From positions 458,948-478,947 of the forward strand of contig ML992509.1 in NCBI GenBank assembly GCA_010093995.1: a stretch of 20,000 bases of DNA, in the 5' to 3' direction. The translations under genes were made by a program, and so were the position numbers. Positions 25-20,000 of this stretch are shown here, piece by piece. Numbering within the stretch: position 1 is the stretch's first letter; every line of letters begins with the position of its first letter. This stretch comes from Elsinoe ampelina (Eukaryota). The notes under the pieces were generated by a model, which was not told where the DNA came from, did no database searches, and saw nothing but the letters and a program-made list of their open reading frames with translations.

Positions 25-739
25 GCCATTGCCTTCTGGGAAGAATACTTGGAACACGAGAAGCTCAAGGACTACCCAAAGGCAAAAATAGTACTGCTTC
101 GACCCTCGATGGCCTTCCTCCTCCTTCAAACACACGTAAAAGACATTACGTCCCTCCGATCTGCGTTACCAGACTTCCGCAACACCACGCACATCTTTCT
201 ACCCGTGAACGACTGTCAGGATGTCAATCGAGCAGAAGGCGGATCACACTGGTCGCTGTTGTTGGTCAGCATACTCGATAACGTCGCATTCCACTACGAC
301 AGCATGTATCCAGCCAACGCCCGGGAAGCAGATATCTTGACGGCAAAGTTTAGCAAACTGTTGGATAGGAATCTGCGATTCATCAACCTGCCAGACTCGC
401 CACAACAGGACAACGGCAGCGACTGCGGCGTCTTCGTTTGCCTCATCATGCAGCACCTCTTGTTGGGCAGACTCCTGAAAGCACATGCTAACGACAAAGT
501 CAACATGAGTCTGCGGGGCAAAGAAGTCGACGCCACAGGAGGCAGGAAGGAGATGCTACGGGTGATTGAGAGCTTCAGGAAGGAAGGCGAGAGGCGGAGA
601 TCGTGAGTATATGTAGAGTACAAATGTTGGTTGAATGCTTGCTTACAACATCAGGACCTCACAACACCGATCACGCAGCCCCTTCACGAGCGGGAAGGAC
701 CAGTCGAAGAGCCCTCCTAGAATTGGCGAGGAGAACTGA
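25..739 (+). CDS. DEN1: NEDD8-specific cysteine protease (Ulp1/peptidase C48 family, DenA/SENP8-like), 5' part outside the window; exons 25-602 and 655-739
   Basis: Catalytic motifs GGSHWSLL, HYDS and QQDNGSDCGVFV. An upstream intron ends at TAG 22-24 (branch CTGAC 8-12), giving AIAFWEEYLEHE in frame with the ORF at 49. Intron 603-654 (GTGAGT...CTTAC...CAG) gives the C-terminus STSQHRSRSPFTSGKDQSKSPPRIGEEN and stop TGA 737-739. Confidence 0.85.
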
Positions 740-953
740 TCGTTGACAGCGACGACAAGCATTATCACCAAGGCATGATTGACGAGCGACGATTTATGCA
801 TAGACGCATCGAGAATAGCGACAATGGCCACTACAAGTGAAGTACCACTATCAGGTAGTATGGAGTACATGGATTACCCAGGCATAATGGAAGCCGCTTT
901 GCTGTACATTGGCTTATTTTCTATCCCGACTTTTTTATTTCATCTTGCTTCGT

Positions 954-2087
954 TCATGGCAACTTGTCGACCTCGCCCTTCTTTACGCCATTCGTCTCAC
1001 TCTCTTCCGAATCGTATGTTCCCTTCTCCGCCTCCGATACAGTCGCTCGCCAGCTGTGCTTGTCCTCGATCTTGCCCAATTGAATCCCCTTCAACCTAGT
1101 AAGCAACTCCACCACCACCGGCCCCGGCTCATCACTCGCGTCCCTGTACTTGAACGTATCCTTGCCTCTCGTGATACTCTTGATCGGCACCAACGCCGCC
1201 GCCGTCCCCGCCGCCATGACCTCCTCAAACTCTGGCAGCTCCTCAAAAGATATCGGCCTCTTGGTCACCTTCCACCCCAGATCCCTCGCGATATCACACA
1301 CGCTATCCGCCGTCACGCTCTCGATCACATTATTCGAATCCGGCACCACAATCTCGGTCTCGTTCCCTTGCTTCTTCACCCCCAAGAACGCACTCGTGCT
1401 GAACTCATCGATCACCGTCCTCGTCTGGCTGTCCAAATGTAACGTGATCCCGTACCCCTCGTTCCTGGCTTGTTCGCTGTACCGCAGCACCGGTGCGTAG
1501 TTGCCGCCGACTTTGTAGCTGCCTGTGCCGTGCGGGGCGGCGCGGTCGAAGTTGTCGAGGATCAGGGCCTTGACGGGGTTGACGCCGTGGTAGACGCCTG
1601 TCGGGAGGACGAAGACGAGGAAGGTGTACTCTTCTGGTGGGTTGAGGCCGAGTTGTGCGCTGGAGCCGAAGAGGAGAGGACGGATGTACATTGCTGCGCC
1701 GGTGTCGTGGGGTGGGACGAATTCGGCGTTGAGGGCGACGGCGAGGTGGACGGACTTGAGGAAGTGCTCGACTGGTACTTGGGGGATGGAGATGCTTTCG
1801 GCGGAGCGCTGCATTCGTTCGGCGTTCTTGTTAGGGCGGAAGATGTTGATTGTCTTGTCTCCTGGGGCACGGAAGGCTTTGAGGCCTTCGTAGCATTGTT
1901 GGCCGTAGTTCAGACCGGGGGCCATGCCATGGAGGGAGAGGAAGGGCGAGCGAACGAAGCGGGGTGTGGTCCATTTTCCGGTCGACTTGGAGTACGTGGA
2001 TTCGATGTGACCATTGACTTCGCGGACCTTGAAGCCGACATTGGACCAGTCGATTGTGCTGGTTGGCGGGGGCGGGAAGGAAGTCAT
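954..2087 (-). CDS. Branched-chain amino acid aminotransferase (PLP fold-type IV, TOXF-like fungal subgroup), intronless, 377 aa
   Basis: IDWSNVGF, LNYGQQCYEGLKAFR, YIRPLLFG, PLP-lysine motif YKVGGNYAP, GTAA. Likely start is ATG 2087 (MTSFPPPP); the ORF-track extension to 2405 looks non-coding. Confidence 0.9.
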   Translation of the reverse strand: MTSFPPPPTSTIDWSNVGFKVREVNGHIESTYSKSTGKWTTPRFVRSPFLSLHGMAPGLNYGQQCYEGLKAFRAPGDKTINIFRPNKNAERMQRSAESISIPQVPVEHFLKSVHLAVALNAEFVPPHDTGAAMYIRPLLFGSSAQLGLNPPEEYTFLVFVLPTGVYHGVNPVKALILDNFDRAAPHGTGSYKVGGNYAPVLRYSEQARNEGYGITLHLDSQTRTVIDEFSTSAFLGVKKQGNETEIVVPDSNNVIESVTADSVCDIARDLGWKVTKRPISFEELPEFEEVMAAGTAAALVPIKSITRGKDTFKYRDASDEPGPVVVELLTRLKGIQLGKIEDKHSWRATVSEAEKGTYDSEESETNGVKKGEVDKLP

Positions 2088-2458
2088 GCTGGGCGGTAGT
2101 GAGGTGGATGGGTTCGGTGTGACAGGTATGGAGTGAGAGAGTATGGAGTGAAGTTGAGCAGGAACATTTTCAGTGACGCAGGTCTCCAACAATGCAATGC
2201 CGATATCGCAGCGCCTTGTCACGGTCCCCAGCTCCGGCAGTTTCCCCACCAGGTTGAGCCCCTGAAATGTCAAACGGCGCACTGCGAATTTTGGGCAACA
2301 CGAGAGTTTCACGCAACGGTCCCTGAAGACGCGAAGCTGCAAGCTCCTTGGCTGTACCGGCGTGCTGGGAGCTGCAGCTAAAAAATCGCTGCTCCGCGCT
2401 CTCAACAGACGTTCTTCTTTTCTTCACACAGTCCTTTCTGCCATTGAATACTGCAATC

Positions 2459-4116
2459 ATGGCGGAAGTCAAGACTGCCCCATCGACCATCTCCGAGGAG
2501 TCTTTTGAGTTTGTCGAGACTCCAGCAGCTCCTAGCCCAGTGCCAGAGAGCAGCGAGTATGGCGTTCGCACCACTTCGGTGAGTGAGCTGGTGATAAGCA
2601 ATTGAGGTTGTCACTGATGTCCAAATAGTACCCTACCATTCGCAATGCACCTCTTCCCGCAGATGGTGCTGGTAGCGACACCTTCAACAACAAGATCATG
2701 ATCTTCCTCCTCGTTGTCATCCCAGGATGGCTCGCGTGGAAACTGGGCGGAGGTCTCAAGACTACCATCTTCTTTGGCCTGTTCACCACGATCCCGATCC
2801 TCATGGCATTCTGGACTGTCGCTAGTTCAATGTCCCCCCGCAAGAATGAGAAGGCCCGTTTCCCCGGTGCTCCAATCGAGCATTACCTCACCTTCCACCG
2901 TGAGTCGGACAAGCAGAAATACCACGGCAAGGCAAAGATTCCCATGGAGACATTCCACGAGATGTACTTTGATGGTCACGTCAGTGTCAACGGTGACATG
3001 CTCGAGGCCCTCGAGTATCGTCATGATTGGGCTTCATTCCGCTTCACCTTGTCCCTCTTCTGGTTCTTCCTCACTGGCATGATGCCCGAAGTGATCATGC
3101 ACACCCGTTCTCAGGATGAGGAGCAGGTCCGCGACCACTACGATCGTGGTGATGACTTCTACGGCTGGTTCCTTGGTCCACGCATGATCTACACCTCCGG
3201 TATCATCTCCGACGCTAACAAGCACGAGTCTCTTGAGCAGCTCCAGGACAACAAGCTGGCTGTCGTCTGCGAGAAGGTTGGTCTCAAGGCTGGCGAGAAG
3301 CTCCTCGACATCGGCTGTGGCTGGGGTACCCTCGCCAAATTCGCATCTGCCAACTACGGCGCCAAAGCTACTGGTATCACTCTTGGCCGCAATCAAACTG
3401 CTTGGGGTAACGGAGGACTCCGCCGTGTCGGTGTTCCGGAAGAGCAAAGCAAGATTCTGTGCATGGACTACCGTGATATCCCTGTTCCCGAGGGTGGCTA
3501 CAATAAGATCATTTCGCTCGAGATGGTTGAGCATGTCGGTATCCGTCGCCTTTCGGACTTCCTCACTCAATGCTACAACATGCTCGACGATGATGGAGTC
3601 TGCCTCCTCCAGTACTCTGGTCTCCGAAAGTACTGGCAGTATGAGGATCTCATTTGGGGTCTTTTCATGAACAAATACGTCTTCCCTGGTGCCGACGCTA
3701 GTACTCCTCTTGGGTACTTCATCGACAAGTGCGAAGGTGCTGGCTTCGAGGTCAAGCACGTTGACACTATCGGTGTGCACTACTCTGCCACTTTGTGGAG
3801 ATGGTACAGAAACTGGATGGCCAACCGAGACAAGGTTGAGGCCAAGTACGGCAAGCGCTGGTTCAGGGTAATTCGATATCTGAAGTACATATCTGCAGGG
3901 CGAATTTGCTGACATTTACAGATCTGGGAATACTTCCTCGCTTCGTCCACCATCATCTCCCGTCAAGGCTCAGCCACTTGCTACCAGATCACCCTTGTCA
4001 AGAACATCAACTCTACCCACCGGGTTGAAGGTATTCCAGATCACTTTGGTCTTCACGGTGCTCTTGAGCATGCTAAGAAGGCTGGGAAGGCACTGTTCCC
4101 TACCAACAAGGCGTGA
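2459..4116 (+). CDS. SMT1: Sphingolipid C9-methyltransferase (CFA-synthase-like SAM methyltransferase); exons 2459-2578, 2629-3867, 3922-4116; 517 aa
   Basis: N-terminal transmembrane segments, VRDHYDRGDDFY, GPRMIYTSG, SAM motif LLDIGCGWG, SLEMVEHVG, KYVFPG. Introns 2579-2628 (GTGAGT..CTGAT..TAG) and 3868-3921 (GTAATT..CTGAC..CAG) restore one frame ending IWEYFLASSTIISRQGSATCYQI...TNKA-stop. Confidence 0.92.
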
Positions 4117-4341
4117 AAGGACGTACTGCCTTGAACAAGCAACAAGAATGAGGCATGATGTAGCGCCTCCAGAAGGACACGATGTGAGGCCACCGCGGAG
4201 AAGAACAGAGCTCGATGGATCTGAGGAGGAAGGTCCGGTCCGATGGCGATATAGAAAATGACTTGGCCCAAAATGTGCGCATAATATATGTACATTCGAA
4301 AGCTCATAGACACGAATTAAGGTACACCAACAATCCCTGTC

Positions 4342-5469
4342 TCAGAACCTGACTTTCATTCCGTCACATGTCACCACTCGCTCACCCCCCCNNNNNNNNN
4401 NNNNNNNNNNNNNNNNNNNNNNNNNNNNNNNNNNNNNNNNNNNNNNNNNNNNNNNNNNNNNNNNNNNNNNNNNNNNNNNNNNNNNNNNNNNNNNNNNNNN
4501 NNNNNNNNNNNNNNNNNNNNNNNNNNNNNNNNNNNNNNNNNNNNNNNNNNNNNNNNNNNNNNNNNNNNNNNNNNNNNNNNNNNNNNCACAATCAACCCAC
4601 TCCCTCGGCATGCCCACCTCCTCAATCTCCCTGATCCTCTCCTCCCTCCCCCCCTCCAACCCCTTCTCACTCGCCAAATAATCCCGCTCACACGCCCCCC
4701 CCTCGACGCCACACAACAACTCCAACAACAACACCACTAACCCCGTCCGATCCTTGCCCTGGGTACAGTGAATCATGACAGGCCAATTCTCCTCGCGCGC
4801 CAGGGCGGAGAAGACGCACCTCATCTCGCGCCAGGAGGAGAGCAGGCTGTCGGTTGCCAGACCGGTGAGGCCGCGGGGGGACATTGCGGCGGCTAGGATG
4901 CGGATGGCGGGGAGGCGCTGGCCGAGGAGGTAGAGGGTGATGAGGCGGAGGATGGAGAGGAGGGGGAGGAGGGAGATGAGGCGGAGTTGGAAGAGGGGGC
5001 CGTTGAGGGGGATGGGGAGGGTGGTGATTGGGAGGGGAGGAGGGGGGGAGGGGGTGGCGGGGGGGAGGAGAGGGTTGGTTTCTGGAGGGGAGAGGGAGGG
5101 GGGAGGAGGGGTGTTGCGCGTGGCGAGTTGGAGTTTTTCGGTCCTGGGAGGGGGGTTAAGTGGTGGGGTTGGAGAGGAACAGGGGGGATGGACTTGGAGC
5201 GCAGGTCGAGGATGGTGTGGATTTTGAGGGTGGATTGGAGTGTGTCCCGGTCTGAGGGGGAGGCGAAATCGGGGCGGGCGGAGCGGTAGAGGAGACCGGG
5301 TTTCATGCGGCTGTGATGCTTGTTAGATAGTTTATTGGGAGATGGGATATATCATGTGAAAAGCAGAGACGTACTGTTTGCCAGAAATGGCATTGGTAAA
5401 GAGGCCTACATCTCGCACGTTGAGGATGCCGTCAAATTTGATGCTCCCAGGAACGGGAGGAGGAACCAT
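4342..5469 (-). CDS. Protein tyrosine/serine phosphatase (Y_phosphatase3, IphP/PtpB-like); exons 5469-5375, 5310-5194, 5143-gap; 3' end uncertain
   Basis: ILNVRDVG (LNFRD-type motif), LYRSARPD, ILDLRSK/TE and catalytic CX5R HCTQGKDRTG, followed by RDYLAS. Introns 5374-5311 (GTACGT..CTAAC..CAG) and 5193-5144 (GTCCAT..CTTAAC..CAG) join the ORF-track fragments in frame. The stop lies in or just after the N gap; 4342 is valid only if the gap size is exact. Confidence 0.82.
4392..4586. other. Assembly gap (195 N)
   Basis: Run of N flanked by C-rich low-complexity sequence. Confidence 1.
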
Positions 5470-6067
5470 TGTCAGCACATGGGGTATCAATGGATATGGA
5501 TATCAGAGGGACAAGGCTGTCGTGCGTCGTGCGAGGTTCCCAGGATCCACTTTGATGTGCGCCCAAAGCTTCAAGCCCCCGGCGTGATCTGCATCCGAGA
5601 TTGAGGGTCTGCAGGGTAAACAGTCGCGCATCTTCAATGGTCTGCATTGACAGACATGGTTTTCACGACTTGAGGAACAGATTGAGTATACCAAATCTCT
5701 TGACCCATCGGACGTGTGCATCGGGCATATTTTGTACACATTCCGTGAGACAAAGCATCATGTGGAGCGTCTCAAAGCGCGAAAGAGAGTTTCTGAGCTT
5801 TGGTCCTTCTGGCTGCTGTGACGTCGATGACGTTGCGAGGTGCGCTCCTTCAAATGCACCCTCTGTCGATCAAAAAACCACCAGGCCCAGGCTTTGAGAT
5901 GTTGTATTCCGGCCTGACTGCCTTGTAAATTGCTATTCATTAATCGCCCAGCGCCTGGTAGCCCACTCGATCCATTTGAGTCTTGTTTGTCGTGTCCTCT
6001 TTGGAAAGAGCAAAGTGGCTCGTCCCCCTTTTGGACGACCCCGCAGACCCCGAGGCCGACCACCAAC

Positions 6068-9028
6068 ATGGCCGCTTCAATAACATGCCCGGACCCATCC
6101 GCGCATCGAGACACAAAGCTCCAGGAACAGGCATCTACTGCAGCACTTCTCGCAGCCAGTCCGCGACAAAAGACGAATGCATCCGATATCCTCGACAAGG
6201 ATAACAGGCTTTCTTCGAGGAGTCCGTCTTCACCACGTAGCAATTGAAATTGGAAGCTGCATGAAACTGACAATGGCACAGGCGCAGCAATGTCACTAAA
6301 GCATGCGAAGCCCGAAGACCTTCCCAGCTGGCCCAGCACAGGTGGTGTAGCCTTGAGCGCATCGTCTGGCGCTGCGAACCTCGCAAACGCAAATCAAAAA
6401 CCTTTTGAGCATTGGAAACCAGATCCCTCCTCTGCAGCTGGGAAGGCAGCACTCCTAGCAAAGGACTATAAGATGGATCCACTCTGGCAGCCCAGCATGA
6501 GCGCTGCTGGCTCCAAAGCCGCGCTTCTCGCTCACAAAGAAGGTGGGAAACTTCACCTGTGGTCTCCAGAAGCCAGCGCGGCTGGTAGTTCGGCAGCCAC
6601 ACAGGCATTCAAGAACAACACCCTCAGCCCGAATGTCGATTATGGATACACGGAAGATGGCAGGAGCAAGGCCCTCCTCGCTGCTACAAAGTCGGTCAAA
6701 AGTTCTCGCGCCCGCGCAGGATCAGTGCCAACACCTGCGCCACCTGCATATCCAGATTCTGCCAATTCTGCCTACAATGCTTTGAACGCTGCGACAAAAG
6801 CAAACAGGGCGCCCTCGTCGAGAGGTCAGGAAGACTACCAAATGTCTTCTCCCTCCCTCGAGGAGTCGCGGATCAAGCACTTGAGCGACAAGATTTCGAG
6901 AGAAATGTTTACGGACCACCCACCCGTTGATATTGAGGTTCAAGAGAAGAAGCATCAAGACGCGTTGCGCGCTTCTGCTATTTCCATGGCGAAAGGCATG
7001 TACAACTTGCAGCAAAAGAAGCAATCGGAAGGTCCGACCTCGCCCGGCAGCACGGCCGCTTCGACCGCCATTGGCCGCAGCAACACCACTGGAGCACAGC
7101 CAGATATCCGTCAACAAGCTCTCCAGTACATCCATCTCCAGGAAGCTGCCCACAAGCTTGCTGAAGAGCGACTTGCAAAGATGGACCCTGACGGAGCGGC
7201 CAGATATCGCGAGCACTACGGCTATCCATTGCGATCACCCCGGCGTAAGCTGTCGGTCAAGGATCGATACTCCCGGCGACGCGCCAACAGTGATGCTAAA
7301 GTATTACCAGCCGACGATTCAGACTCGGACGACGATGACTTCCGCTCGCGACGCATCAGGAACCAGATGAACCAATTTAACAAGGATTTGGAGAGTCTTG
7401 ACGAGAAGAAGCGCCAGTCAGATCGAGCTGCGCTACTTGCCGCTGCTGAGAAGAAAGTACAAGCCCAGATGCGTACTATGGATGACAAGCTCTATGCCGA
7501 GAAGGGCAAGGTCTCCCAGGCCAAGCTGGATGAGTGGCAAGCACTATCCTACGAGAAGGCCGCTAGGGACAGTGCTAAGCGCACTGAGAATTTTGGAAAG
7601 GCTGACTTAGGCGGTGGGAAGTTTATGGATCAGAGTGAGATAGAAGCTATTGCTGCTGCAAGACTGAAGCCCACCTTGGACGAGATTAACGAAAATGCCG
7701 AAAAGCGCCGTGCTAGGGATGAAGAGATCAGACTCGACATGGAAGAGAAGAAGAGGCAAGAAATGAGCGAGAGGCAGCGTGAGAGGGAAGTCAAGATGCT
7801 GCAGAAGCAGACTAGAGGTGAATACGCCGTGGAAGTGGCAGGAATCATCGCTGACATACCGCCAGAGTCAGAAAAAGCCACTGCGAGGCAAGAGAAAGAA
7901 CAGCAGAAGGCAGCACATAAACAAGAGAGGGAGCAACAGAAAGCCGCTGCTAAGATCGAAAGGGACGCCGAAAAGGCCCGCAGAGCGGAAGAGAAGAAGG
8001 CTGCAAAGGACGATAAGCGACGATCCAAGGATGTCAAGCGTGACGCTGCCGCCGCCGCTACAGCTTCAGCTTCAGCACACGAAATGGCCGACAAGTCCGA
8101 TCACCATCACTCTCCCAAATCATCCTCGGACTCCCCAGACCTGGACGAGCACGAGTCACAATCGCCGGTCATCTCTCGCACTGCGACTGGTGACGCCGTA
8201 CTGCATCCTGGCATCGAGCGACACGTCTCTACCATCTCTACCTCTGCGAGCGACGATGAAGCCGCTGATTCCTCACCGTCTAAGAAACCAGTCACCAAGC
8301 CGGTGGATGCTGCTGAAGTGCCACAAGCAGCACATATCGGGACTGATGGTCCCATAGGCACCACCACGACCATAACTGCAAACAAAAAAGGCACAGAAGG
8401 CAAAGATCTCGAGTCCCCGCCACAATCGCCCAAGTCTCCGCACCGCATCTCTCGCCTCTTCGATCGCTTGAAGCGCAAGAGTAAGCACGAGCGTGATGTC
8501 GAGCCAGGCACGCTGTCCCCAGGTCTCAAGTCCTCCAAGCTGTCCAAATCACCCAAGCATGACACAGACTCTGCGCCAAAGTCCTCGGCTGAAGACGAGC
8601 CCCCTGTCGCTTCCGCCACCGTCGACCCGACTGAGCCTGCTGTAGGTGCTCTGTCGGCTGTCGAGGCTCGCGGCATCGCCGAGAACCATGCCAGTGCCGC
8701 CGCTGCTTCGCCGAGCAGTTTCGTCAGAGGCAAGCCCCAAGATGACGATGCGATCAGTAGCCTCAGCAGTCTGACAAGCGACGAGCCTGCTTCTTCTGTC
8801 GCCAGACCGTCAGGGGATAGTGCCACTACACCATCGAAGACTGGTCAGGATGGCAAGGACGAGGATAGCAAGGAGAAGCGCAGGTCATTTGGCTTGGGCA
8901 TCGGAATGGGGAAGAGTATTCTTCCGAGCTTTGGTAAGGCCAAAGATAGCGGGTCTACGAAGAGACAGAGCATTGATGGCTCAGCCAAGAGTCCTGCGAG
9001 GGAGACGAGGTTTCAGGAACAGTTGTAG
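6068..9028 (+). CDS. EIS1: Eisosome assembly protein Eis1-like (Eisosome1 family); exon 1 6068-6221, intron 6222-6281, probable second intron 7818-7865
   Basis: Repeated SAAGxAALLA motifs, DLGGGKFMDQSEIEAIAAARLKPTLDEI motif recalled from the Eis1 family, long charged coiled coil and a disordered Ser/Pro-rich tail. Upstream exon MAASITCPDP...LDKDNRLSSR splices in frame (GTCCGT..CTGAC..CAG) to SAAMSLKHAKPEDLPS. Confidence 0.78.
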
Positions 9029-9309
9029 GGACAATACGGGTACCAAAAAGGATACTGGGAAATCGGTTGGAAGAATAACTCCCCTGCAAGAAGAGGATCG
9101 AGAATGTATTCATGCAGTATTGCTTCATGAGAAATGTATAATTACGACAGATGAATTATCGTGTCAATTACAGTTTAGACCTTACAAGAATCGATTCGCA
9201 TCACATCGTGATTTGACAGCCATTTCCACAGCCGTAGTACTCTCAGATGCCTCCTAAACGCCCTCGTCATCACCCCATACCCTCCCCCAATCCCTGACCT
9301 CTCTCCGCA

Positions 9310-10578
9310 CTACCTCACAACCCTAACCCCCAACCCCGTCCCCCCCGTCCTAAACCCCTCCACGACCCCACTCCCCACCCCCTCCTCCAACACCCACCCG
9401 AACCGCACCCCACAAAACCCCTTCCACTTCTTCGTCCGCCCCGGCAGTACCCCACTCCACTCCCCCCTCGTCCTCTTCGCCCTCCCCACCGCGTCTTCCT
9501 CCCCGGGGACATTCCCATCCCACCTCTCCCGCACCAAGGACGACAACGCTTCCTTGTGCCGCGGACTGGATCTGCAGATCAACGAGACGAGGTGCGCGCG
9601 GGTCTGCGTGAGCAGGCGAAGGTACGAGGCGGTGTTGGGGAGGGAGAAGGTGAGAGTGCCTTGGCATTCTGCGGAGCGGGATGCGCTAGGGGAGGAGGAG
9701 GAGGAGGACGAGGACGGGGAGGTAGTGGGGGGGCAAGAGGTGGGGAGACCTCCGGTGCCTCCGCCGCGGAGGTGCACTGCGCCTATGCCGCCTACCGCGT
9801 CGAGGGAGCCGGTGGGGGCGGTGGTGCCGGCGTTGGCGACGGGGGTGGAGAGGCCGAGGGAAAAGGCGGATGTGTGGCTTATTGGTGCGGAGAGAGGGAG
9901 GGAGAGGGCCGAGGTGGAGGTGAGGAAGCCGTGGGTGATGAGGAGGCGGGTGGAGTCGGGGGGGAGGGAGGAGGAAGGGATGGTGGGTGAGGTGGGGTGG
10001 AGGGTGAGGAGGGAGATGTAGGCGTCTTGGAGGTCGGAGGGGAGGAGGCTGGAGCGGATGAGGGAGGTCCAGTCTGAGGTGAGCACGAGGCCGTGGCCGA
10101 TGGGGGAGCCGCCTGTGCCTCGACCTGGGATGGTGATGCGGCGGATGGTGCCGGCTTGGGTGAGTTTGGCGATTTCGCGGTCGGTGGTAGTGGGAGAGGC
10201 GCTGAGGGCGTGGATGTGGGCGATGGAGACGATGGGAGCGAGATCTCGGCGGAAGTTGAGCACTTCGGCGATGCGGCTCGAGTTCATGCCTGAAGAGCGT
10301 TCCGGAATGGGGTCAAACATGGTCGATCGGATGTGGTTCATCAGGGAGACGACGTCTTGTGGTGTCCCTGGCTGTGCGAGGCTGGTTATGATACCGCCGT
10401 GGTGTAGTGCCTCATCGTCGCTGTCATGTTGTGTCTTGATCTTTTTCGCCACTGGCTCTGCCGCGGATGGCTTTGTCCGAGCATGGTTACTGAAGGACGA
10501 TGATGACCTCTTCAGAAAGGGATTTTGTTTTGGTTTGGATTGCAGTGGCCGTCGTGCTCCTGTTGCGCTAAATGACAT
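9310..10578 (-). CDS. STK19: STK19-family (winged-helix) protein, intronless, 422 aa
   Basis: Basic N-terminus (possible NLS AKKIK). MFDPIPERSSGMNSSRIAEVLNFRR..PIVSIAHIHAL..SPTTTDREIAKL and C-terminal FSLPNT..YLRLL, RERWDG, GRTKKWK.F.GVRF.WVL..GSG.VE.F.T resemble fungal STK19-domain proteins. Confidence 0.72.
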   Translation of the reverse strand: MSFSATGARRPLQSKPKQNPFLKRSSSSFSNHARTKPSAAEPVAKKIKTQHDSDDEALHHGGIITSLAQPGTPQDVVSLMNHIRSTMFDPIPERSSGMNSSRIAEVLNFRRDLAPIVSIAHIHALSASPTTTDREIAKLTQAGTIRRITIPGRGTGGSPIGHGLVLTSDWTSLIRSSLLPSDLQDAYISLLTLHPTSPTIPSSSLPPDSTRLLITHGFLTSTSALSLPLSAPISHTSAFSLGLSTPVANAGTTAPTGSLDAVGGIGAVHLRGGGTGGLPTSCPPTTSPSSSSSSSSPSASRSAECQGTLTFSLPNTASYLRLLTQTRAHLVSLICRSSPRHKEALSSLVRERWDGNVPGEEDAVGRAKRTRGEWSGVLPGRTKKWKGFCGVRFGWVLEEGVGSGVVEGFRTGGTGLGVRVVR

Positions 10579-10846
10579 GTGGTCGTCCTGTTGTCCAGTT
10601 CACAGATGGAGGCAACCTGATTTGCCACAAAAGCCGTTCCAAGTCATACTCGAAGCTGACTCAGCGCTTATGTCACGTGCTCTACTTGCCTAAGCGTCAA
10701 CGTTGCTGGCGGCTCAACCAGCATTACCGGGCACGCGAATGGATAACAACAGCCACATGTGCAAATCTTCCGAACGATCTTGATCATGTGACAGAAAATG
10801 GAGGTAGTCTGTAAGCAGTTGCTTGATCGCGTGAGGTATGCTTGGC

Positions 10847-10880
10847 GGAAATTTCCAGGTTCTTCTACACACTTCCAGAT
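10847..10880 (+). promoter_or_regulatory. Heat shock element (HSF site) upstream of the Hsp20 gene
   Basis: GAAatTTC (10848-10855) followed by TTC at 10863 and 10873 (10-bp periodic, step-type HSE). TATA-like GATAAATA near 10990. Confidence 0.65.
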
Positions 10881-11133
10881 CCCGCCAGCCGCAGCGGTGA
10901 CCTACTCCTGCATTCGCGTAGGCTCCAGAGATGACCAACGACGACGACAGTCCACGCAGCCATGACTGCCTGTCCCTTTGCGCACAAGGATAAATACCCT
11001 CTCGACCACCACCTCAAGCCTCTCATCAAGAACAAAGAAAACCAAACATCTTATGCAAAGCCTACGCTCAACAACACCACGAGCCTACCGCATCGCGAGA
11101 ACAGCCGTTCCAATCCACACAACAACACGCGCA

Positions 11134-11748
11134 ATGTCTCTCTTCCCACGCTTCGCCTCCGGGGAATTCACTCCCCTCTTCCGCCTCCTCGACGACTACG
11201 CTAGCCACCAACTCACCCGCCCAACCATCCCGGGCAGCACCGCGTCCTCCACCCTGCGCTCCTTCCAACCACGCTTCGACGTGAAGGAGAGCAAAGAGGC
11301 GTACGAACTCGAGGGCGAACTCCCAGGCATCGACCAGAAGGACGTCTCGATCGAGTTCACCGACCCACAAACACTCCAAATCCGAGGTCGCACGGAGAAG
11401 TCGTACGAAGCTGGAACCAGGCCGGGTATTGAAGGCCAGGAACAGGGACGTATCACTGATGCGGAGAAGTACCACAAGCCGTCTGTAGAGGAGGACGACA
11501 CGACCATGTCGGGCGCCAATCCAGACGCGAAGCAGAGCACTGAGGTGTCGACTGAGACGAAGCAGCAGGAGGCGCCGACGCATCGCTACTGGGTCTCTGA
11601 GAGGTCGGTAGGGGAGTTCAGCCGATCGTTTAACTTCCCTACTAGGGTCGATCAGGAGAAGGTCAAGGCTAGTCTGAAGAATGGTGTCTTGTCCATCTTG
11701 GTGCCCAAGGCGGCGGCTCCGGTTGCGAGGAGGATCAATATTGAGTAG
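11134..11748 (+). CDS. Small heat shock protein (Hsp20/alpha-crystallin, fungal Hsp30-like), 204 aa; possible 27-aa N-terminal extension from ATG 11053
   Basis: MSLFPRF..EFTPLFRLLDDY, FQPRFDVKE, ELPGIDQKDVSIEF, YWVSERSVGEFSRSFNFP, ASLKNGVLSILVPK and a C-terminal IxI motif (RINIE). Confidence 0.93.
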   Translation: MSLFPRFASGEFTPLFRLLDDYASHQLTRPTIPGSTASSTLRSFQPRFDVKESKEAYELEGELPGIDQKDVSIEFTDPQTLQIRGRTEKSYEAGTRPGIEGQEQGRITDAEKYHKPSVEEDDTTMSGANPDAKQSTEVSTETKQQEAPTHRYWVSERSVGEFSRSFNFPTRVDQEKVKASLKNGVLSILVPKAAAPVARRINIE

Positions 11749-12017
11749 ACACCCTTCGAGGCCTACCTGAATTGTACTTTTAGCAACGGGGCAACGCACA
11801 TGATATTTGCATAGCATGGACGCACATGATAGATGTCTAGTATCATCCTTGAGAAATGTAAGATAGTTGCAGTAATAATTGAAAGCAAATCAAACCCTGC
11901 CTACCTTTCCTGATCGTAATGGTGCATATGCCCCGCAATAGAATTTTCTTGCGGAATGAGACTGGCCATATAGGTAGATAGTCGCTTTTGATTGGACGGA
12001 AGACGCTAGAATTTCCC

Positions 12018-13121
12018 TTACAACTCGGGATGTAATTCAGGAACACACAACCCCAACCTCCAAAAGTAATCCCTGTGCGCAAACAGCAGCTGCCACAACT
12101 TGTACCGTGACGGAAAGCCAAAGCCAGTCCTACTCTCATGCGCCATGGCTTTGACCGACTCGCTCAGACTGACACCCTTCTCGCCGTCGACTGGGTTCTC
12201 CAGCACCGATGCAAGACTATCGTCTTGGCCGGCGATGCATTCTTTGTCTGCACCGCCATCGCAATATCGTAGGTCTCCAACTTCAGGCGACAGGTTGGAT
12301 TTTGTGATGAAGATCTCTCCAGCGTGAGGGGTGTAGCCCCATTCACTCAGCGGGAGGAGAGGTACTGGGTCGTCGACGTGTGTGACTCGTCGGTATCTGC
12401 TTCCTGCATCTCCCTGTCGGGTGTCGTTCAGCTCGAAACGTCGTCCGAAATATGCGGCCAATTTATCGTTCCCGATCCTCGGCTCGCCGAAGGTGGTGAC
12501 AGTCGGTTTCCAGCCTCTGTTTTCAAGGTCGAGTCCGGCAAAAGCAGCCACTGCTCCACCGAGACTGTGTCCCACTAGCACTAGCTTATAGCCTGGATGC
12601 GATGCCCGAAGTGCGATGATGTGCGGCATGACAATATCCTTAGTGAGCTCCCATGCCCTCATGAAGCCCATGTGCGCAGTGCAGTCGTCGCATTTCTGGT
12701 CGGCCTTGTCGTCACTACCCGGGTATGGTACGTACTCTTGCTTGACCGTCGCGAGGTCCAGAACAGTGTTGGCTAGGCTGTATGTGCCTCTGAATGCGAC
12801 GATGATGCGCTTTTCGGCTGGCGCATGCGACAAAGCCAGGTAGCCACATGAGTCGCTGAGTAGAGGTCCAGTGTTCCACGTTGTGATGAGCTCGAAGGAG
12901 GGAAAGCCGGAGCAGCGCGACAGGCAAGTGAAGGGCTTGGAGATACCGGTGCCAGCAGTGCCAACGCAGTAAGAAATGTCGACGATACGTGAGAGCTCCT
13001 CGAGCTCGGCAAAGACGGTTGATGACACAGTCGTGTTGGTCGAGGAAGTGTCCACGAGTGGTATTTGTGATGCACTCGTCAAACAAGCAGACACAGCTGC
13101 GAAGGTAACAAAGAAGCGCAT
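12018..13121 (-). CDS. Secreted class-3 lipase / feruloyl-esterase-like alpha/beta hydrolase, intronless, 367 aa
   Basis: Signal peptide MRFFVTFAAVSACLTSA, IIVAFRGT, HMGF, nucleophile motif GHSLGG, TFGEPRIGN, RVTHVDDPVPLLP and catalytic His in AHRDYF. Confidence 0.92.
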   Translation of the reverse strand: MRFFVTFAAVSACLTSASQIPLVDTSSTNTTVSSTVFAELEELSRIVDISYCVGTAGTGISKPFTCLSRCSGFPSFELITTWNTGPLLSDSCGYLALSHAPAEKRIIVAFRGTYSLANTVLDLATVKQEYVPYPGSDDKADQKCDDCTAHMGFMRAWELTKDIVMPHIIALRASHPGYKLVLVGHSLGGAVAAFAGLDLENRGWKPTVTTFGEPRIGNDKLAAYFGRRFELNDTRQGDAGSRYRRVTHVDDPVPLLPLSEWGYTPHAGEIFITKSNLSPEVGDLRYCDGGADKECIAGQDDSLASVLENPVDGEKGVSLSESVKAMAHESRTGFGFPSRYKLWQLLFAHRDYFWRLGLCVPELHPEL

Positions 13122-14439
13122 GGCTCCTGTGTGTTGCGACTCTCACATAATCGCCTTTGTAGGAGTGAGTTGTTTCAAGGTATGATGCGCACGAGGTCTT
13201 TCGAGAAGATGGAGTTTGGATCGGACCCGACGCTAGCCGCATGCGTTCCCCCATGATCACAGGGCATGTTGGACCCTCCAGTGTCTGAGACGACAATTTC
13301 TATCCGTTCTACATCGGAGGCTCTAGGTTTTCATAGCATCAAGCTATACATCACAACTATTCAGGGGTTTCGCGAAATGCTCCGCGGTCAAAGGCTTGCG
13401 AGTATGTGCTCTTAACCGGGAAAATAGCTCGCCTTGATGCATAGTCAGTCATCCTCCAATTGACCTGTTTCTCCATCTCTACCGCGAGACAACGGGCTAT
13501 GACTGTGCGTCTTCGATCCGGATATTCTCATCCAAATTGTAAGAGACTACAGCCTCGCAGCAGAGATCTCGCTGCTCGATTTATGGCCACCTCCCTCTCC
13601 ACTTCCCTTGACCACCTTCATTCACGGTCATCACGTCGAAGACAATATATGAGTAATAGCTTCCAGACAGGGAGCAATCCTGGTATATCGGACTGCTTGA
13701 ACATCGCCACTGCTTGGCGCTCTAGTAAGGAACGGAGTCGTGGGTACTGCCAAGGCGATATGTAAGGTACAGGTACTTAAGTGCTGCTGCAGCTTTGATG
13801 CGGGAAGTGCTTGTCAATGCTTCTGCATGTGGCGACTCGCGATTTATACAGCTGTTGTCAGGGTTCAAGCCGTCAATCCAGAGTTGTCTTCGGGCTCTAT
13901 TCCAGATCTATGTTATCCATGGTCCATCTCGTACACACTGCGGCGCAGATGTGCGTTATTCGAGGAGAATACCTGATGATGTCCAGGACAAGCTTTCTCG
14001 GACTCGATACAGTAAAACAAAATTCTTGGCCCGTGCTTGCCGTCGTTCGGAAGTGCCGGAAACAACACTCCTCGAGAGTTTGGGCCAGATCTCTTTCACG
14101 TTTTCTTCGATCAGCCCAGCTGACGTATTTGCTTCGCCATAATGTATGGAACTGCGGGAGTATTGAGATCTCATGCTTTGCGTTGGCCCTGGTAGTACTC
14201 GTGTCGAACCCGCCGAACCCGCCGACCGTGACGCTGCCACATTGAAATGTAGGAATCCTTTCGCACCCACTGCCTACCTGATACAAGGTTGCACTTTCCT
14301 ACTGCGCAGCGAGCTTTCTCATATTTTAGATTCATGCCAGTCGCCTCTAGCTTGGGAGGTACACAATCACCATCGCTAAACAAGAATCAGCCACAGCTAT
14401 CCTTCCGATGCCCATTACTACCATCACCCCACAACACTA

Positions 14440-15384
14440 ATGGCGGACACGAATGCGAGCGATGCTCCCTCCACCAACTCACACGACCTTCAAGCTCTCG
14501 CACAACGTCCCGACGGAACCTTCCCCTCCACCTCCGACCTCCCCACCACCCTCCCCTCCCTCAACTACACCGTCCGCACCCGCCCCCGCCTCTGGTGGAT
14601 GGCCATCTTCTGGACCGTCACGCTAATCGACTCCTGCATCCTCCCCATCACCTTGTACTTCACCCTGCACAACCTCACCTCCCTGTCCCCCAACACCGTC
14701 TTCTCCATCGTCACAGGCGCCATAGGCGGTCTCTCTATCGTCGAGTACGCCATCCGCTCGTGGCGTCTCTGGAAACCCCACAGCACGTGTCGTCCGCTCG
14801 GCGACCCGTCGCGGTGGGCGTTTGATTTCTTCCACTGGATATACTCTTTCGCGTGGCTGATTTGCATGGTGGAGTTGATCGTGGGGAGCGTGCCGGATGA
14901 GCCGTACATGCGGCTTTTGGCGCTGGTGCCGGCGACGTTTCTGTATGTCTTTGGGATACAGTTCTTGCTGTTTGACTTCATGGCGAGGTTCGGGATTCGG
15001 TCGCCCGTCGCGATATCCAGCCAGCCGCGTGGCGAGGTCCCGCGGAATGCGGTTTTCACGTTGGTCGAGGATGTGGTGGCTGTAGATGGCGCTGCGGGGA
15101 CCGAGTACAGGGAGCGATTGGCGGCGCGGTACAAAGCGTCTGAGACGTTCAGGGCGATGATGCAGACTATGACGATGTTTTGGGGATGGGGTGCGCTGGG
15201 GACGGCGGTGTTGACGACTGTGTTGGCTTTTGCGTTGGAGAATAAAGAGGTGGCGTATACCCAGGGGTGGTCGGTACCATTTGTTTGGGCGATGCTATGG
15301 GCGGCGATCAGTTGGCGGTATGTCGAGAGGATGTTGAGAGTGGAGCGAGAGGTCTGGAGGGGCAGTAAGGATGTACCTGTTTGA
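14440..15384 (+). CDS. Uncharacterised multi-pass membrane protein (about 6 TM), 314 aa
   Basis: Long ORF with strong codon bias and several hydrophobic helices (WWMAIFWTVTLIDSCILPITLYF; WIYSFAWLICMVELIVG; MFWGWGALGTAVLTTVLAF; GWSVPFVWAMLWAAI). Soluble motif EDVVAVDG..G.EYRERL.ARY.AS..FR.M. Confidence 0.8.
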   Translation: MADTNASDAPSTNSHDLQALAQRPDGTFPSTSDLPTTLPSLNYTVRTRPRLWWMAIFWTVTLIDSCILPITLYFTLHNLTSLSPNTVFSIVTGAIGGLSIVEYAIRSWRLWKPHSTCRPLGDPSRWAFDFFHWIYSFAWLICMVELIVGSVPDEPYMRLLALVPATFLYVFGIQFLLFDFMARFGIRSPVAISSQPRGEVPRNAVFTLVEDVVAVDGAAGTEYRERLAARYKASETFRAMMQTMTMFWGWGALGTAVLTTVLAFALENKEVAYTQGWSVPFVWAMLWAAISWRYVERMLRVEREVWRGSKDVPV

Positions 15385-15742
15385 TGAGAGGACGAACGTG
15401 GCTTGGGGTGTGGTTGTGTGGTAGTGGGCGTTGCATAGCGGGTTTCGTGTAGATATTGATAGACAGACGAGAGCAATCTTCCGTTTCGAAACGCCGCACG
15501 TAATCTAAACCCAAACTCCGCGACATCTATATGATTTATCTGAGCTGTCTCACGCCTTGCCGCAGCTCCGTTGATCGTCTGGCGAGGCACAGGAAGAATG
15601 AGTAGTTTCCTTGTATCAAAGTGTCTTGAAGCATTTTTCATTCAGAGTACAAATGTGCGCTATGTACACTCACGGAAATGAATGTAATACAAGTCTTCCT
15701 TCCATCTACTGTTGTCGTGCTCCATCCTCAAATCAGCTACCC

Positions 15743-16669
15743 TCAAGAGAAGGCCATGCTCTTCTTGATCTCCGAAATAGCCAACGCCGGGTTGAGACCC
15801 TTGGGGCATGTCCTCGAGCAGTTGAGAATAGTATGGCAACGGTACAAGCTCATGCTGTTGTTGAGCTGGTCCTTGCGAGAGGCGGTCTTCTCATCACGAG
15901 CATCGGCAATCCAGCGGTAGGCCTGCATGAGCACGGCCGGACCAAGGTACTCCTCGCTGTTCCACCAATAGGATGGGCATGATGTGCTGCAGCAGGCGCA
16001 GAGAATGCACTCGTAGAGACCATCGAGCTTCTTGCGGTCGTCACGAGACATGCGGTATTCCTTTCCCTGAGATTTGTTAGAAACTCGTCATTATGATAAC
16101 AAGGGGCGAACTTGTGGACGTACGTCAGGCGCAGGCGTGTCACGCTGCAAATATGGCTTGATGGACCGGTATTGCTTGTAGAATTGTGTCAAATCTGGCA
16201 CCAGATCCTTCACGACGTAGGTGTGTGGTAGAGGATAGATGCGAGTCTCCTTTGCTGTGTCGGTCGGGATACGGCAGAGACACGCCAGTGTGTTGACACC
16301 GTCGATGTTCATGGCGCAGCTGCCACAGATCCCCTCTCTGCAGCTTCGTCGGAATGTAAGTGTAGGATCCACCTCGTTCTTGATTCTGATCAGGGCGTCC
16401 AACATCATAGGACCCGTCTTATTGAGGTCGAGAGTGTATGACTGCATCCGAGGCTTTGCTGTTGGCTCATCTGGGTTCCATCGGTAGATCTGGAATGTCT
16501 TGATCTTCGCATCGGCGTCTGCTGTCGGATCTTGAACAGTCTTTGTCTGTGATGGCGGGACGACTGAACGGCTTGGTGTGGGAAGCTCAGAAGCTGTGGC
16601 CATGGTCCTGCGGAACGCCAAAGGCGCCCGAGGCGCGAGTCTCGATGTCGCAAGTCGTAGTGAGGCCAT
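15743..16669 (-). CDS. SDH2: Succinate dehydrogenase iron-sulfur subunit (mitochondrial complex II); exons 16669-16124 and 16066-15743; 289 aa
   Basis: Mitochondrial presequence, [51 protein letters not shown]. Phase-0 intron 16123-16067 (GTACGT..CTAAC..CAG). Confidence 0.98.
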
Positions 16670-17991: not shown

Positions 17992-18138
17992 CGATGAACC
18001 CCAGATGTCAATAGTACCGATTGCAATTGGCTTGTACCAAAGTCATCATTACATTTCTCTCTCTACTTGAAGTAGAGCCGCGTGAGGTTGGTTATAAAAG
18101 ACCACGTGCACGATGTTGCAAATTTGCAAAGTTCGTCC

Positions 18139-18697
18139 TCATCCCTCAGAGTGTTTGTCCTTCAGCCCGTACAATTCTTCACGCAGCCACTCTATCGCAC
18201 TTTCCAAACGATAAAGCTTTACCGAGAGTGTCTCTTCTTTGCCCTCTCCGTCTTGATCCATACTCTTTCCCAGGCTGTCTTTCCTGTTATTCACAGGTGG
18301 AGGCTTGCGTATGGTTTTGTGGTGACTTTGCAAGTCATCATGCGCTTTCCGGACTTCTTGTTTGGCTTGCAGCATCTGTACATCGTTTTCATCGATACCA
18401 TCTCGTCGAAGAACGTAGACGTAGGCTCGGGAGTGGCGGGCGACGTTGATCAAGCGCGCAGCATCAGTGTTGTACTTGTGAAGTCAGCATATTTCCCTCT
18501 CGCCTGGCAGCTTGGGTGATAGAACGAACGAATTCACAGTCAACGTAGCAGGATCTGCAACTCCAGCATATGTCGTTCGCTCGATGTAATCTGTGGCAAC
18601 TGGGATCATTCCGGTGCTGCGAGACGCTGGATATGGCGTGTTCCTTTGCAAGGCTATGACAGTTGATACAGAGCTCGGGAGATTGTTCATGTTCCAT
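18139..18697 (-). CDS. Small orphan protein (167 aa) with a Cys-rich Zn-cluster-like N-terminus and helical/coiled-coil C-terminus; exons 18697-18530 and 18474-18139
   Basis: Two ORF-track fragments are joined in frame by a 55-nt phase-0 intron 18529-18475 (GTTCGT...GCTGAC...AAG), giving ...CWSCRSCYVDCEF/YNTDAARLINVAR... Confidence 0.6.
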
Positions 18698-19143
18698 TGT
18701 GGATGGCCGGGCTGCTAGCTTGACAGCCAAGGATGTTGAGGTGAGATCGTCTTGACGCTATAGCCCGGAGTCTTTGCCACGATGATGTCTGCGATGTTAA
18801 ATGCCTTGTTTGTCGTACTAGAAAGGGTTACATTGGTGCGCACTACCTAGAGTCTTGTTCAGCAGCTTCAACAGTGTGCAGAAACAAACGAGATGAGGTT
18901 ATAAGCGGCGTGGCTTGCAGAGGCGTATTTCACATGTGCTGACCTACCTGCACTCTCGAATCAAAGCAATCAATGACAAAATGGTCTGTTGTTTCAAGCC
19001 ATGAATGCTTAGTTGGGCAATTCAGCCAATAGAGCACTCTGCCACAGGACTCGTGCTGAAATCTATCCATGTAGGCACACTAGGCTATGCCTCACGATGC
19101 CCATTGCTCGTGATGCGCGATGAACAGTTCGAGGCATGCTAAT

Positions 19144-19508: not shown

Positions 19509-19768
19509 TGTTGACTTGTGTGGGGGAGGAAAAAGGATTAATTACTGCCTGAACCACCAAAATAAGGTAGATTGTAACTATATAAATACTTAACCTAGTA
19601 TACTAAAAGATAGCTAAATCAAAAGAACTCCTTAATAGTAACAGATTAAGACAATAACTATCTAATTTAATTATAAATTAGTAGAGTAGTAGATAAGTGT
19701 TTAGTTCTACTAGGGGATAAACTAAATTAGAATCCTTCTTAGTACTCTAGCTTATACCTTAGTTAATA
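19509..19768 (-). repeat. Long terminal repeat (260 bp) with 8-bp inverted termini TGTTGACT...AGT(C>T)AA(C>T)A
   Basis: TGTTGACT at 19509-19516 and AGTTAATA at 19761-19768, which equals AGTCAACA with two CpA>TpA changes and lies directly next to the PPT. Confidence 0.75.
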
Positions 19769-20000
19769 TACCCCTTTACTAAATAGCTATAAGGCTATTA
19801 TAGCTAGTTAGTAGACTACTAACTCGAGGGATAGCTATTATAAGAAGGCCTTATACCTTCTAGGTAGCAATAGCTTAGTTAATCCATTAGCTAAGGTATC
19901 TACTAATAGTGTCTATGTTACTAAGATAGGGCTAGATAGATCTCTAGCTAGATTAATCTCTTGTCTTAGCTAGTAATAATAGATATTAATATAATAAAGA
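19509..20000 (-). mobile_element. RIP-mutated Ty1/copia LTR retrotransposon, 3' end (RNase H C-terminus about 19999-19808, PPT about 19779-19769, 3' LTR 19768-19509); continues beyond the window
   Basis: Minus frame reads LYYINIYYY*LRQEI...*TLLVDTLANGLTKLL.PRRYKAFL**L. Reversing C>T/G>A changes gives the copia RNase H signature LRHIDIHHHWLRQE...W...D.LADGLTKPL. Purine tract AAAGGGG abuts the LTR. The region is very AT-rich, TpA-rich and CpA/TpG-poor. Confidence 0.88.

Follow-up and report, generated by a model that had tools for sequence, protein, structure and literature searches.

GC-rich islands of opposed strand skew at the 3' ends of convergent genes in Elsinoe ampelina: an extreme form of a known fungal pattern

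What makes a gene turn abruptly from C-rich to G-rich along one strand while its neighbours show nothing of the kind? The question is raised by a 20,000-nt stretch of the Elsinoe ampelina genome (the window), for which an original prediction, made from the letters alone, described five such flips and attributed them to a localised process acting symmetrically about a centre. Opposite GC skews at the 5' and 3' ends of fungal genes have been published (McLean and Tirosh 2011, PMC3315797). That average pattern had gone unnoticed in the prediction, as had the tie of the flip centre to the gene 3' end and to a convergent neighbour.

Skew flips in the window

A changepoint scan of all G/C sites across the whole window, with 300-bp arms, placed the five top C-to-G steps at 4833 (2dLL 159), 9553 (145), 1491 (57), 14807 (49) and 11272 (35); no step in 100 shuffled windows exceeded 23 (95th percentile 17). 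All five predicted flips were recovered, the scan positions lying within about 40 bp of the predicted ones except in Hsp20. The predicted sharpness holds for four of them (BCAT, phosphatase, STK19 and membrane gene), in which sense-strand four-fold skew passes from between -0.6 and -1.0 to between +0.5 and +0.8. The Hsp20 flip, however, is weak and gradual; its position varies with arm length (11270-11380) and its four-fold 2dLL of 16 falls under the cut of 20 used for calling a flip.

Island 1 (900..2160; C-rich to about 1490, then G-rich on the plus strand) lies in the BCAT gene (Aminotran_4; 954-2087, minus strand), with its flip 544 bp before the stop, a four-fold 2dLL of 94 and a four-fold GC content (GC4) of 0.80. 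Its convergent partner, an Ulp1-type protease gene on the plus strand (last coding part at 109..606), has no island. Island 2 (4370..5340; C-rich to about 4800-4830, then G-rich on the plus strand) occupies a minus-strand tyrosine-phosphatase-family gene, which was left out of the gene table, its 3' part containing an N run and its stop (4342) being inferred. The partner here is a CMAS-family methyltransferase gene (2459..4116, plus strand), with C/T-ending codons throughout and no island. Island 3 (9190..10350; C-rich to about 9560, then G-rich on the plus strand) is in STK19 (9310-10578, minus strand; flip 256 bp before the stop, 2dLL 95, GC4 0.80), the initial 200 bp of which are free of skew. 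Its convergent partner EIS1 (6068..9028, plus strand) was predicted to show little skew and has a marginal step near 8810 (2dLL 19). The weak island 4 (10900..11750; flip 11270-11390) is in the Hsp20 gene (11134-11748, plus strand; 2dLL 16, GC4 0.70) and converges on a Lipase_3 gene without an island (12018..13121, minus strand). Island 5 (14400..15470; flip about 14780-14810) lies in a membrane-protein gene to which no Pfam family was matched (14440-15384, plus strand; flip 602 bp before the stop, 2dLL 71, GC4 0.80), and its convergent partner, an SDH2-type gene (Fer2_3; 15743..16669, minus strand), has none. The CMAS/SMT-type, lipase, SDH2 and HAD genes indeed showed little skew (scores 1-10).

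The skew is not only a matter of codon choice, as had been proposed: it reaches its greatest strength at four-fold sites and is also found in introns and in flanks. The spliced intron within island 2 (5144..5193, minus strand) carries the skew of its arm, being C-rich on the sense strand, and its splicing was confirmed by an RNA contig joint at 5142-5193. Both flanks named beforehand (9260-9309 and 15385-15430) are likewise skewed. The window is typical of its genome; 420 kb of the same contig contained 69 steps above 30, or one step per 6 kb, and three shuffles of that sequence gave none above 20.

Island shape, base composition and gene layout

The genome was sampled over 820 kb and 256 genes, called with a skew-aware gene finder that placed some stops and one in-frame EIS1 intron wrongly. 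C-then-G flips were found in 92 of the 256 genes and the reverse order in three, giving a sense strand that is C-biased upstream and G-biased at the 3' end, which is the published polarity of McLean and Tirosh. About two thirds of the sampled genes have no island.

Every flip marks the middle of a GC-rich island some 1.5 kb across. Four-fold GC reaches 0.82-0.86 at the flip. It is 0.55 at distances above 900 bp upstream, in the 31 genes that have 1200 bp or more on that side, and about 0.57 at distances above 750 bp downstream, in the 61 other genes; GC4 per gene is 0.76 in flip genes vs 0.53. The C arm fades 750-900 bp upstream of the flip, which in long flip genes is mid-gene, and is not anchored at the start. 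The four-fold skew jumps by more than 1.2 units with arms shorter than 1 kb, and a step fitted better than a linear gradient by more than 6 in 80 of the 92 flip genes, themselves picked by step score. The symmetry seen in the original prediction is uninformative in itself, because any gene with a C-rich 5' part and a G-rich 3' part reads C-then-G on either strand; the bounded arms and the GC maximum at the flip, however, do support a local, mirror-symmetric process with a centre.

In the C arm, the C/T ratio at four-fold sites is about 15 against a baseline of 1.4, while G/A stays at about 0.9; the G arm is the mirror image. C has replaced T, A and G on the top strand left of the centre and on the bottom strand right of it. 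A weak AT skew runs alongside, A going with C and T with G. Among the other site classes proposed for checking, flanks and introns are skewed in the 820-kb sample (introns by -0.66 and +0.68 in the two arms, on small counts of 130-670 bases per bin) and intron GC within islands is about 0.59 vs 0.49, but intergenic GC in the G arm does not rise (0.49-0.55).

Gene layout sets the position of the centre, which lies some 250-600 bp in from the 3' end of genes facing a convergent neighbour. The median distance from flip to stop is 382 bp regardless of gene length (rho -0.04), whereas the distance to the start scales with it (rho 0.87). Where the 3' neighbour is convergent, 76 of 145 genes flip; where it is tandem, 16 of 109 do. 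Divided further by 3'/5' neighbour, the fractions are 38/87 (convergent/divergent), 36/56 (convergent/tandem), 4/56 (tandem/divergent) and 12/50 (tandem/tandem). The called strand is backed by Pfam matches of the longest exon pieces (E<=1e-12) in 72 of the 127 genes in convergent pairs, the other 55 being unchecked. Both genes flip in 18 of 67 convergent pairs, one in 37 and neither in 12; a single centre in the intergenic gap was ruled out by this lack of concordance. In a test of anchoring at the neighbour's stop, flip-to-stop distance regressed on intergenic length with a slope of -0.28 (interval -0.62 to 0.02).

The process has also changed protein sequence. Counted by eye in STK19, the one protein so examined, a G is gained at seven of the nine conserved residues replaced in the G arm; in the C arm, a G is lost at eight of 13 and gained at two. 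Conserved residues have thus been replaced in the direction of the bias. Its action on silent sites and introns, and its override of conserved residues, mark the force as non-adaptive. The original prediction proposed testing whether flips are conserved, and among 14 of 79 orthologous loci, read by all-site skew rather than at four-fold sites, 13 had nothing as strong. In two orthologous loci the island is in the convergent partner rather than in STK19.

Candidate causes

We tentatively favour strand-polar, GC-biased repair of heteroduplex DNA where converging transcription may park cohesin and crossovers, although we hold it to be less than probable. Converging RNA polymerases would park cohesin and meiotic recombination intermediates at the centre, where repair of heteroduplex would combine an overall GC bias with a strand-polar one. 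If mismatches with C on the 3'-ended strand were repaired less often, C would be kept on the top strand left of the centre and on the bottom strand right of it, and a C-then-G island would become fixed over many meioses. The G-versus-C polarity is a step that we infer, and the argument for it was derived for a break at the centre rather than for a junction that has migrated there.

The proposal draws on budding yeast, in which axis proteins and Top3-marked junctions are described as gathering at the 3' ends of convergent genes (Sun et al. 2015, PMC4530585; Powell et al. 2026, 10.64898/2026.03.13.711646), with crossovers enriched at strongly transcribed convergent sites. Like the islands, these sites are at convergent 3' ends, often inside one gene, and 1-3 kb wide. 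Unlike them, they have no lasting compositional island reported in the parts of the papers available to us, which mention no more than a weak GAN repeat and a 5-nt bias in Top3 cleavage. GC-biased conversion is crossover-specific in yeast (Lesecque et al. 2013, PMC3649680), and the C/C mismatch is repaired 3-5 times less well there (Mancera et al. 2011, PMC3218862). As described, such repair depends on mismatch type and yields a local GC gain able to override selection, similar to the GC maximum seen here at weakly selected sites (four-fold sites and introns); the consulted portions of both papers, however, report no G-versus-C strand polarity. A Spo11-family match and six MutS loci are present in the Elsinoe genome.

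Several observations count against this repair proposal. One orthologue pair flips at a GC of 0.47 with no GC peak, and nine of 24 genes 3' of presumed highly expressed genes flip, no more than the background level. The discordance within convergent pairs and the intergenic GC of the G arm, which does not rise, also weigh against it. The bias towards the weaker gene of a pair, expected from the yeast model, did not emerge consistently in Elsinoe: one of 24 genes presumed to be top-expressed flips, but the T3/A3 expression proxy pointed the opposite way, at -0.13 in non-flip partners of flip genes vs 0.06 in tandem genes (p 0.018) and, among long convergent genes, at 0.19 with a flip vs -0.11 (p 0.006). 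Three RNA runs were spliced, with contig depth unfit for ranking genes by expression; in a run from a related organism, no usable sequence differences fell in strong arms among the differences listed. Further, Zymoseptoria has weak or no GC-biased conversion, for which only intergenic DNA was tested, and a strong average skew at gene ends is seen in Candida albicans, whose lineage is described as anciently asexual.

The C. albicans skew fits mitotic mutation or repair coupled to transcription, in the zone where a sense polymerase stalls or encounters an antisense one reading through, a possible cause, if a doubtful one. It would be a local, intense form of the mutational pressure of McLean and Tirosh, in which the non-template strand behind each polymerase turns C-rich. 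The 3' anchoring and the dependence on a neighbour that is convergent or lies upstream in tandem would be accounted for without meiosis, and a C sink with unchanged G/A would be expected from C-inserting bypass synthesis. However, ordinary damage to an exposed strand removes C, whereas here C and total GC increase, and the tenfold local shift has no known enzyme route. Of the 24 genes presumed to be highly expressed, only one reaches the flip cut, although codon selection may mask flips there.

Selection for structure is unlikely. G-rich RNA past the centre in both directions could form R-loops or quadruplexes that aid termination between close convergent genes, or the C arm of the mRNA could fold onto the G arm, as the original prediction had suggested. 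Flips are enriched in convergent genes, 3' GC skew in human genes has been linked to termination in the literature sampled, and RNA of the STK19 island folds with a z of -3.8 against 20 whole-sequence shuffles, which do not keep the arms apart. Nevertheless, long complementary arms in one register were sought and not found. The inverted repeats are short, 34 nt at most with 71-93% pairing; those of the two strongest islands are of low complexity, they share no centre, and control genes have counts similar to three of the islands. Skewed introns, overwritten conserved residues, the weakness at 13 of 14 orthologous loci and the two thirds of genes that manage without an island also argue against selection.

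Replication offers two further readings. Fork termination or stalling at the flips, for example at head-on polymerases, is quite unlikely, although a leading-strand A/C bias would leave an upward jump and yeast termination sites are reported to jump upward in both GC and TA skew (Marsolier-Kergoat 2012, PMC3459929); the flips here jump likewise, their weak AT skew having the matching sign. The yeast jumps, however, as given there, are about 9%, extend over kilobases and lack a GC peak, whereas here the arms die away within 900 bp, there is a GC maximum and sites recur every 6-9 kb rather than once per replicon. The same source describes a large skew jump at C. albicans centromeres that is unrelated to replication. 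The second reading, in which flips are replication origins or Spo11 break sites with damaged resected single strands, both of them leading candidates of the original prediction, is very unlikely. Mirror symmetry and 700-900 bp arms do resemble resection tracts, and Zymoseptoria has many hotspots in exons, but both origins and breaks yield G-then-C where measured in the sources consulted. In yeast the leading strand is rich in A and C, and the jump at origins therefore runs opposite to that of the flips; origins are described as G/T-rich then C/A-rich on the top strand, slowly decaying and intergenic, and the islands, with short arms and with coding centres placed at a fixed distance from stop codons, differ on every count. 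Mutation at human meiotic breaks, as far as described in Hinch et al. (2023, PMC7615360), is likewise mirror-symmetric, centred and kilobase-scale, but has no gene-end anchoring, and on our reading its polarity is opposite, the exposed strand losing C left of the break on the forward strand, where C is gained here.

Codon optimality or protein composition gradients are refuted as the main cause, despite optimal codons ending in C/T and a baseline four-fold skew of -0.25, since four-fold codons ending in G, scarce among highly expressed genes, account for 65% of the G arm, the skew extends to introns and flanks, and orthologues differ.

Relation to the published skew and significance

The Elsinoe islands are an extreme form of a known, unexplained fungal pattern, present in about a third of the genes examined. 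As in the accessible text of McLean and Tirosh, the sense strand turns from C-rich to G-rich, the effect reaches four-fold sites, flanks and amino acids, and many but not all genes take part; in their fourth group a small G-biased stretch at the 3' end runs into the UTR, and the cause was left open. Their skews, however, are averaged ramps tied to transcription phases, with flat AT skew and with skew falling with GC, whereas the islands are on/off, bounded and GC-peaked, with a C arm that stops short of the gene start in long genes. The islands also depend on neighbour orientation, which that text does not treat. Our literature search, mostly outside subscription journals and in main texts without supplements, found no account of such islands, of the link to convergent genes or of skew in Elsinoe.

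A skew whose cause was left open in 2011 resolves here into discrete, high-amplitude, neighbour-dependent islands, which may be the scar of biased DNA repair at gene meeting points. Their map lets each hypothesis be tested, whether crossovers, cohesin, fork merging or mitotic mutation. Rather unlikely, though far-reaching, is the full reading in which the islands would be a fossil, base-pair-scale map of cohesin holding and crossover resolution in a filamentous fungus, with neighbour transcription placing recombination in coding 3' ends and strand-polar conversion rewriting the codons of a third of genes and the C-terminal sequence of their proteins. If that were true, the average skew published for fungal genes would be many such islands blurred together, and a single genome would suffice to read off crossover sites. 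Whatever the cause, conserved amino acids and codon use are altered in many genes, and therefore codon-bias, selection and phylogenetic analyses in these fungi can be misled.

Skew flips in the window and its genome

Abrupt upward GC-skew changes, from C-rich to G-rich, are real and common in this genome, a 28-Mb fungal assembly. The five flips of the original prediction, in the genes for BCAT (~1490), the phosphatase (~4800–4830), STK19 (~9560), Hsp20 (~11270–11390) and a membrane protein (~14780–14810), are the window's five strongest upward steps, and each beats all 100 shuffles. Flip strength is greatest at four-fold degenerate sites, where STK19, for example, counts C45:G1 and C46:G3 in two middle sixths, then C3:G33 in the last sixth. 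The Hsp20 flip is the weak one of the five (four-fold changepoint score, 2dLL, 16). Pfam backs the earlier gene names (Aminotran_4, CMAS, Y_phosphatase3, Eisosome1, Stk19, HSP20, Lipase_3, Fer2_3), weakly so for the HAD gene; the search of window genes found no family for the membrane protein.

In the 420 kb around the window, 69 upward steps exceed a 2dLL of 30, 65 of them with a true sign change, while three shuffled versions hold no step above 20. Downward steps are weaker (21 vs 48 upward with 2dLL >50), and AT-skew steps are rare. A gene sample was drawn from 820 kb on five contigs by a self-trained gene model, with AT-rich DNA as a large part of its non-coding training set; 256 of the 280 genes called were kept, and short, edge and N-rich genes, including the phosphatase gene, were dropped. 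Flip scores are bimodal, and 92 genes pass the cut (2dLL ≥20 plus sign change); they come from both strands and from each of the five contigs. Reverse polarity reaches 2dLL 20 in just 3/256. With one flip per 4 kb, the window is typical of its genome.

A run of N in the 3' part of the phosphatase gene falls within the most C-rich arm, and N total 5,855 in the 420-kb stretch; assembly gaps may be concentrated in islands, in which case the islands are under-counted. Inside the purine-rich tract of the phosphatase island, contigs of three RNA runs join 4975 to 5031, omitting 55 bases and carrying 4 other letters at the joint; there are no splice ends and the short side has only 21 letters, so this may be a misplaced contig from elsewhere. 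At 19580–20000, GC falls abruptly to 27–33% with many TA dinucleotides, presumably the edge of a RIP-decayed repeat.

Island shape and neighbour orientation

Flip-to-stop distance (median 382 bp, quartiles 280–544) is independent of gene length (rho −0.04), and flip-to-start distance follows it (rho 0.87). In flip-aligned long genes, the baseline >~900 bp upstream (GC at four-fold sites, GC4, 0.55; skew ~−0.25) gives way to a C arm whose four-fold composition climbs to C 0.76 and G 0.06–0.10; after the flip it is C 0.12 and G 0.65, and the G arm has faded by 600–750 bp downstream, where coding DNA extends that far. GC4 is maximal at the flip centre. In the C arm, C/T rises about tenfold over baseline with G/A unchanged, and the G arm is its mirror image, so that one strand on each side is a sink for C. 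Symmetry about a centre had been argued from the polarity reading alike on both strands, which is not evidence for it; the bounded, GC-peaked shape does support a centre.

All five window islands sit in convergent genes. Across the sample, flips occur in 76/145 genes with a convergent 3' neighbour vs 16/109 with a tandem one (p 3e-10); an upstream tandem neighbour raises the frequency further, and where no neighbour transcribes toward the gene it is 4/56. Among convergent pairs, 18 have both members flipped, 37 one and 12 neither; this independence rules out the intergenic gap as the centre. Of the 16 flip genes whose 3' neighbour is tandem, 12 also have a tandem gene upstream, and several of the 16 flip within 190–350 bp of their start, as if the upstream gene set the island's position. 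Only one of 24 presumed highly expressed genes (ribosomal proteins, elongation factors, ATPase subunits, Hsp70s, GAPDH, enolase, ubiquitin) passes the cut, expression being presumed from family and two models being fused with a neighbour; their 3' neighbours pass at the background rate (9/24). An expression proxy (T3/A3) did not assign islands to the more weakly expressed member of a pair and leaned in the opposite direction.

At 11764–11904, one RNA contig that continues from Hsp20 to the lipase gene has two minus-strand introns, both located between the two stop codons. This points to a lipase 3' UTR that is spliced and extends as far as the end of Hsp20, so that the convergent transcripts would overlap. 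At 18008–19000, an RNA contig carries two spliced minus-strand introns (18474–18530 and 18842–18944) where the gene model calls no gene. Either a gene was missed or this is a non-coding RNA, in convergent orientation to the HAD gene; through such misses, some genes counted as tandem may in fact have a convergent neighbour.

STK19 across relatives

The STK19 protein is 89% identical to one of Elsinoe batatas and 63–70% to other Elsinoe/Sphaceloma proteins, which places the window's source in Elsinoe. Of 79 metagenome STK19 loci, 14 were profiled by all-site skew, and none of these flips as strongly as the window's. Only L111 and L112, which probably belong to a single species, flip clearly, ~200 bp upstream of the stop and at GC 0.47. 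In L108 and L138, STK19 is flat and a GC-rich C-then-G island sits in the convergent partner, and in L111 both flip. The pattern is thus widespread and not fixed to a protein. At L111:6850–7350 and in L112, a C/A-rich to G-rich flip at GC 0.42–0.48 lacks a GC peak; this lineage may have strand bias without GC gain.

Judged by alignment, the STK19 protein of the window's lineage has drifted with the skew. At conserved columns (at least 6/8 more distant relatives agreeing; replacements counted by eye), 7/9 replacements in the G arm gain G (among them Y to C, and two each of C to G and L to V) and 8/13 in the C arm lose G (among them E to Q, A to T, R to H, G to S); most are common to E. batatas. 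A GAG/GAC repeat tract on the + strand (9690–9730) encodes a poly-serine insertion, shorter in E. batatas and missing from more distant relatives.

Candidate mechanisms

Elimination of the alternatives treated below leaves a strand-polar, non-adaptive force positioned by neighbouring transcription. Its meiotic version, strand-polar, GC-biased heteroduplex repair at convergent gene ends, is a tentative and somewhat doubtful proposal. In S. cerevisiae, according to the available text of two sources, cohesin, axis proteins and Top3-marked junctions gather at 3' ends of convergent genes, with crossover enrichment at strongly transcribed convergent sites (PMC4530585; 10.64898/2026.03.13.711646); GC-biased conversion in yeast is described as crossover-specific, and C/C mismatches as poorly repaired (PMC3649680, PMC3218862, in part). 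If heteroduplex at such sites placed the 3'-ended strand on top left of the centre and on the bottom to its right, unrepaired C/C and repaired G/G would, we infer, both push toward C-then-G. Searches of the genome found a Spo11-family match, along with six MutS loci. Against meiotic repair count the failed prediction, by the T3/A3 proxy, of islands in the weaker gene, the weak conversion bias of Zymoseptoria intergenic DNA, and the strong average gene-end skew reported for Candida albicans in the available text of McLean and Tirosh (2011, PMC3315797). A mitotic, transcription-coupled version of the force is hardly less likely than the meiotic one.

Replication termination has the right sign and the wrong size and density compared with yeast. 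Initiation, as first suggested, has the wrong polarity, provided polymerase biases are as in yeasts, whose leading strands are A/C-rich in the portion available of Marsolier-Kergoat (2012, PMC3459929), also the source for termination. Damage at resected break ends takes C away where islands gain it (cf. Hinch et al. 2023, PMC7615360, in part). The proposed mRNA fold-back is not borne out: arms pair through short repeats only, with scattered centres and no common register, and the folding z of −3.8 for the STK19 island RNA is expected wherever C and G are segregated. As predicted, the skew goes beyond codon choice: introns track the arms in skew and to some extent in GC, intergenic bases in skew alone, and the phosphatase-gene intron, spliced in an RNA contig, matches its arm. 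Neither codon selection nor protein selection accounts for the introns, the flanks or the non-optimal codons ending in G.

The available text of McLean and Tirosh (2011) describes an averaged C-to-G trend that includes four-fold sites, flanks and amino acids. Tested here in addition are the bounded, GC-peaked shape, the C-sink spectrum and the counted dependence on neighbour orientation, together with scarcity in presumed top-expressed families and movement between orthologues; our literature search, with most subscription journals outside its scope, found no paper describing these features. The flips are an extreme, more structured form of a published, unexplained pattern, and the mechanism of the islands is now mappable.
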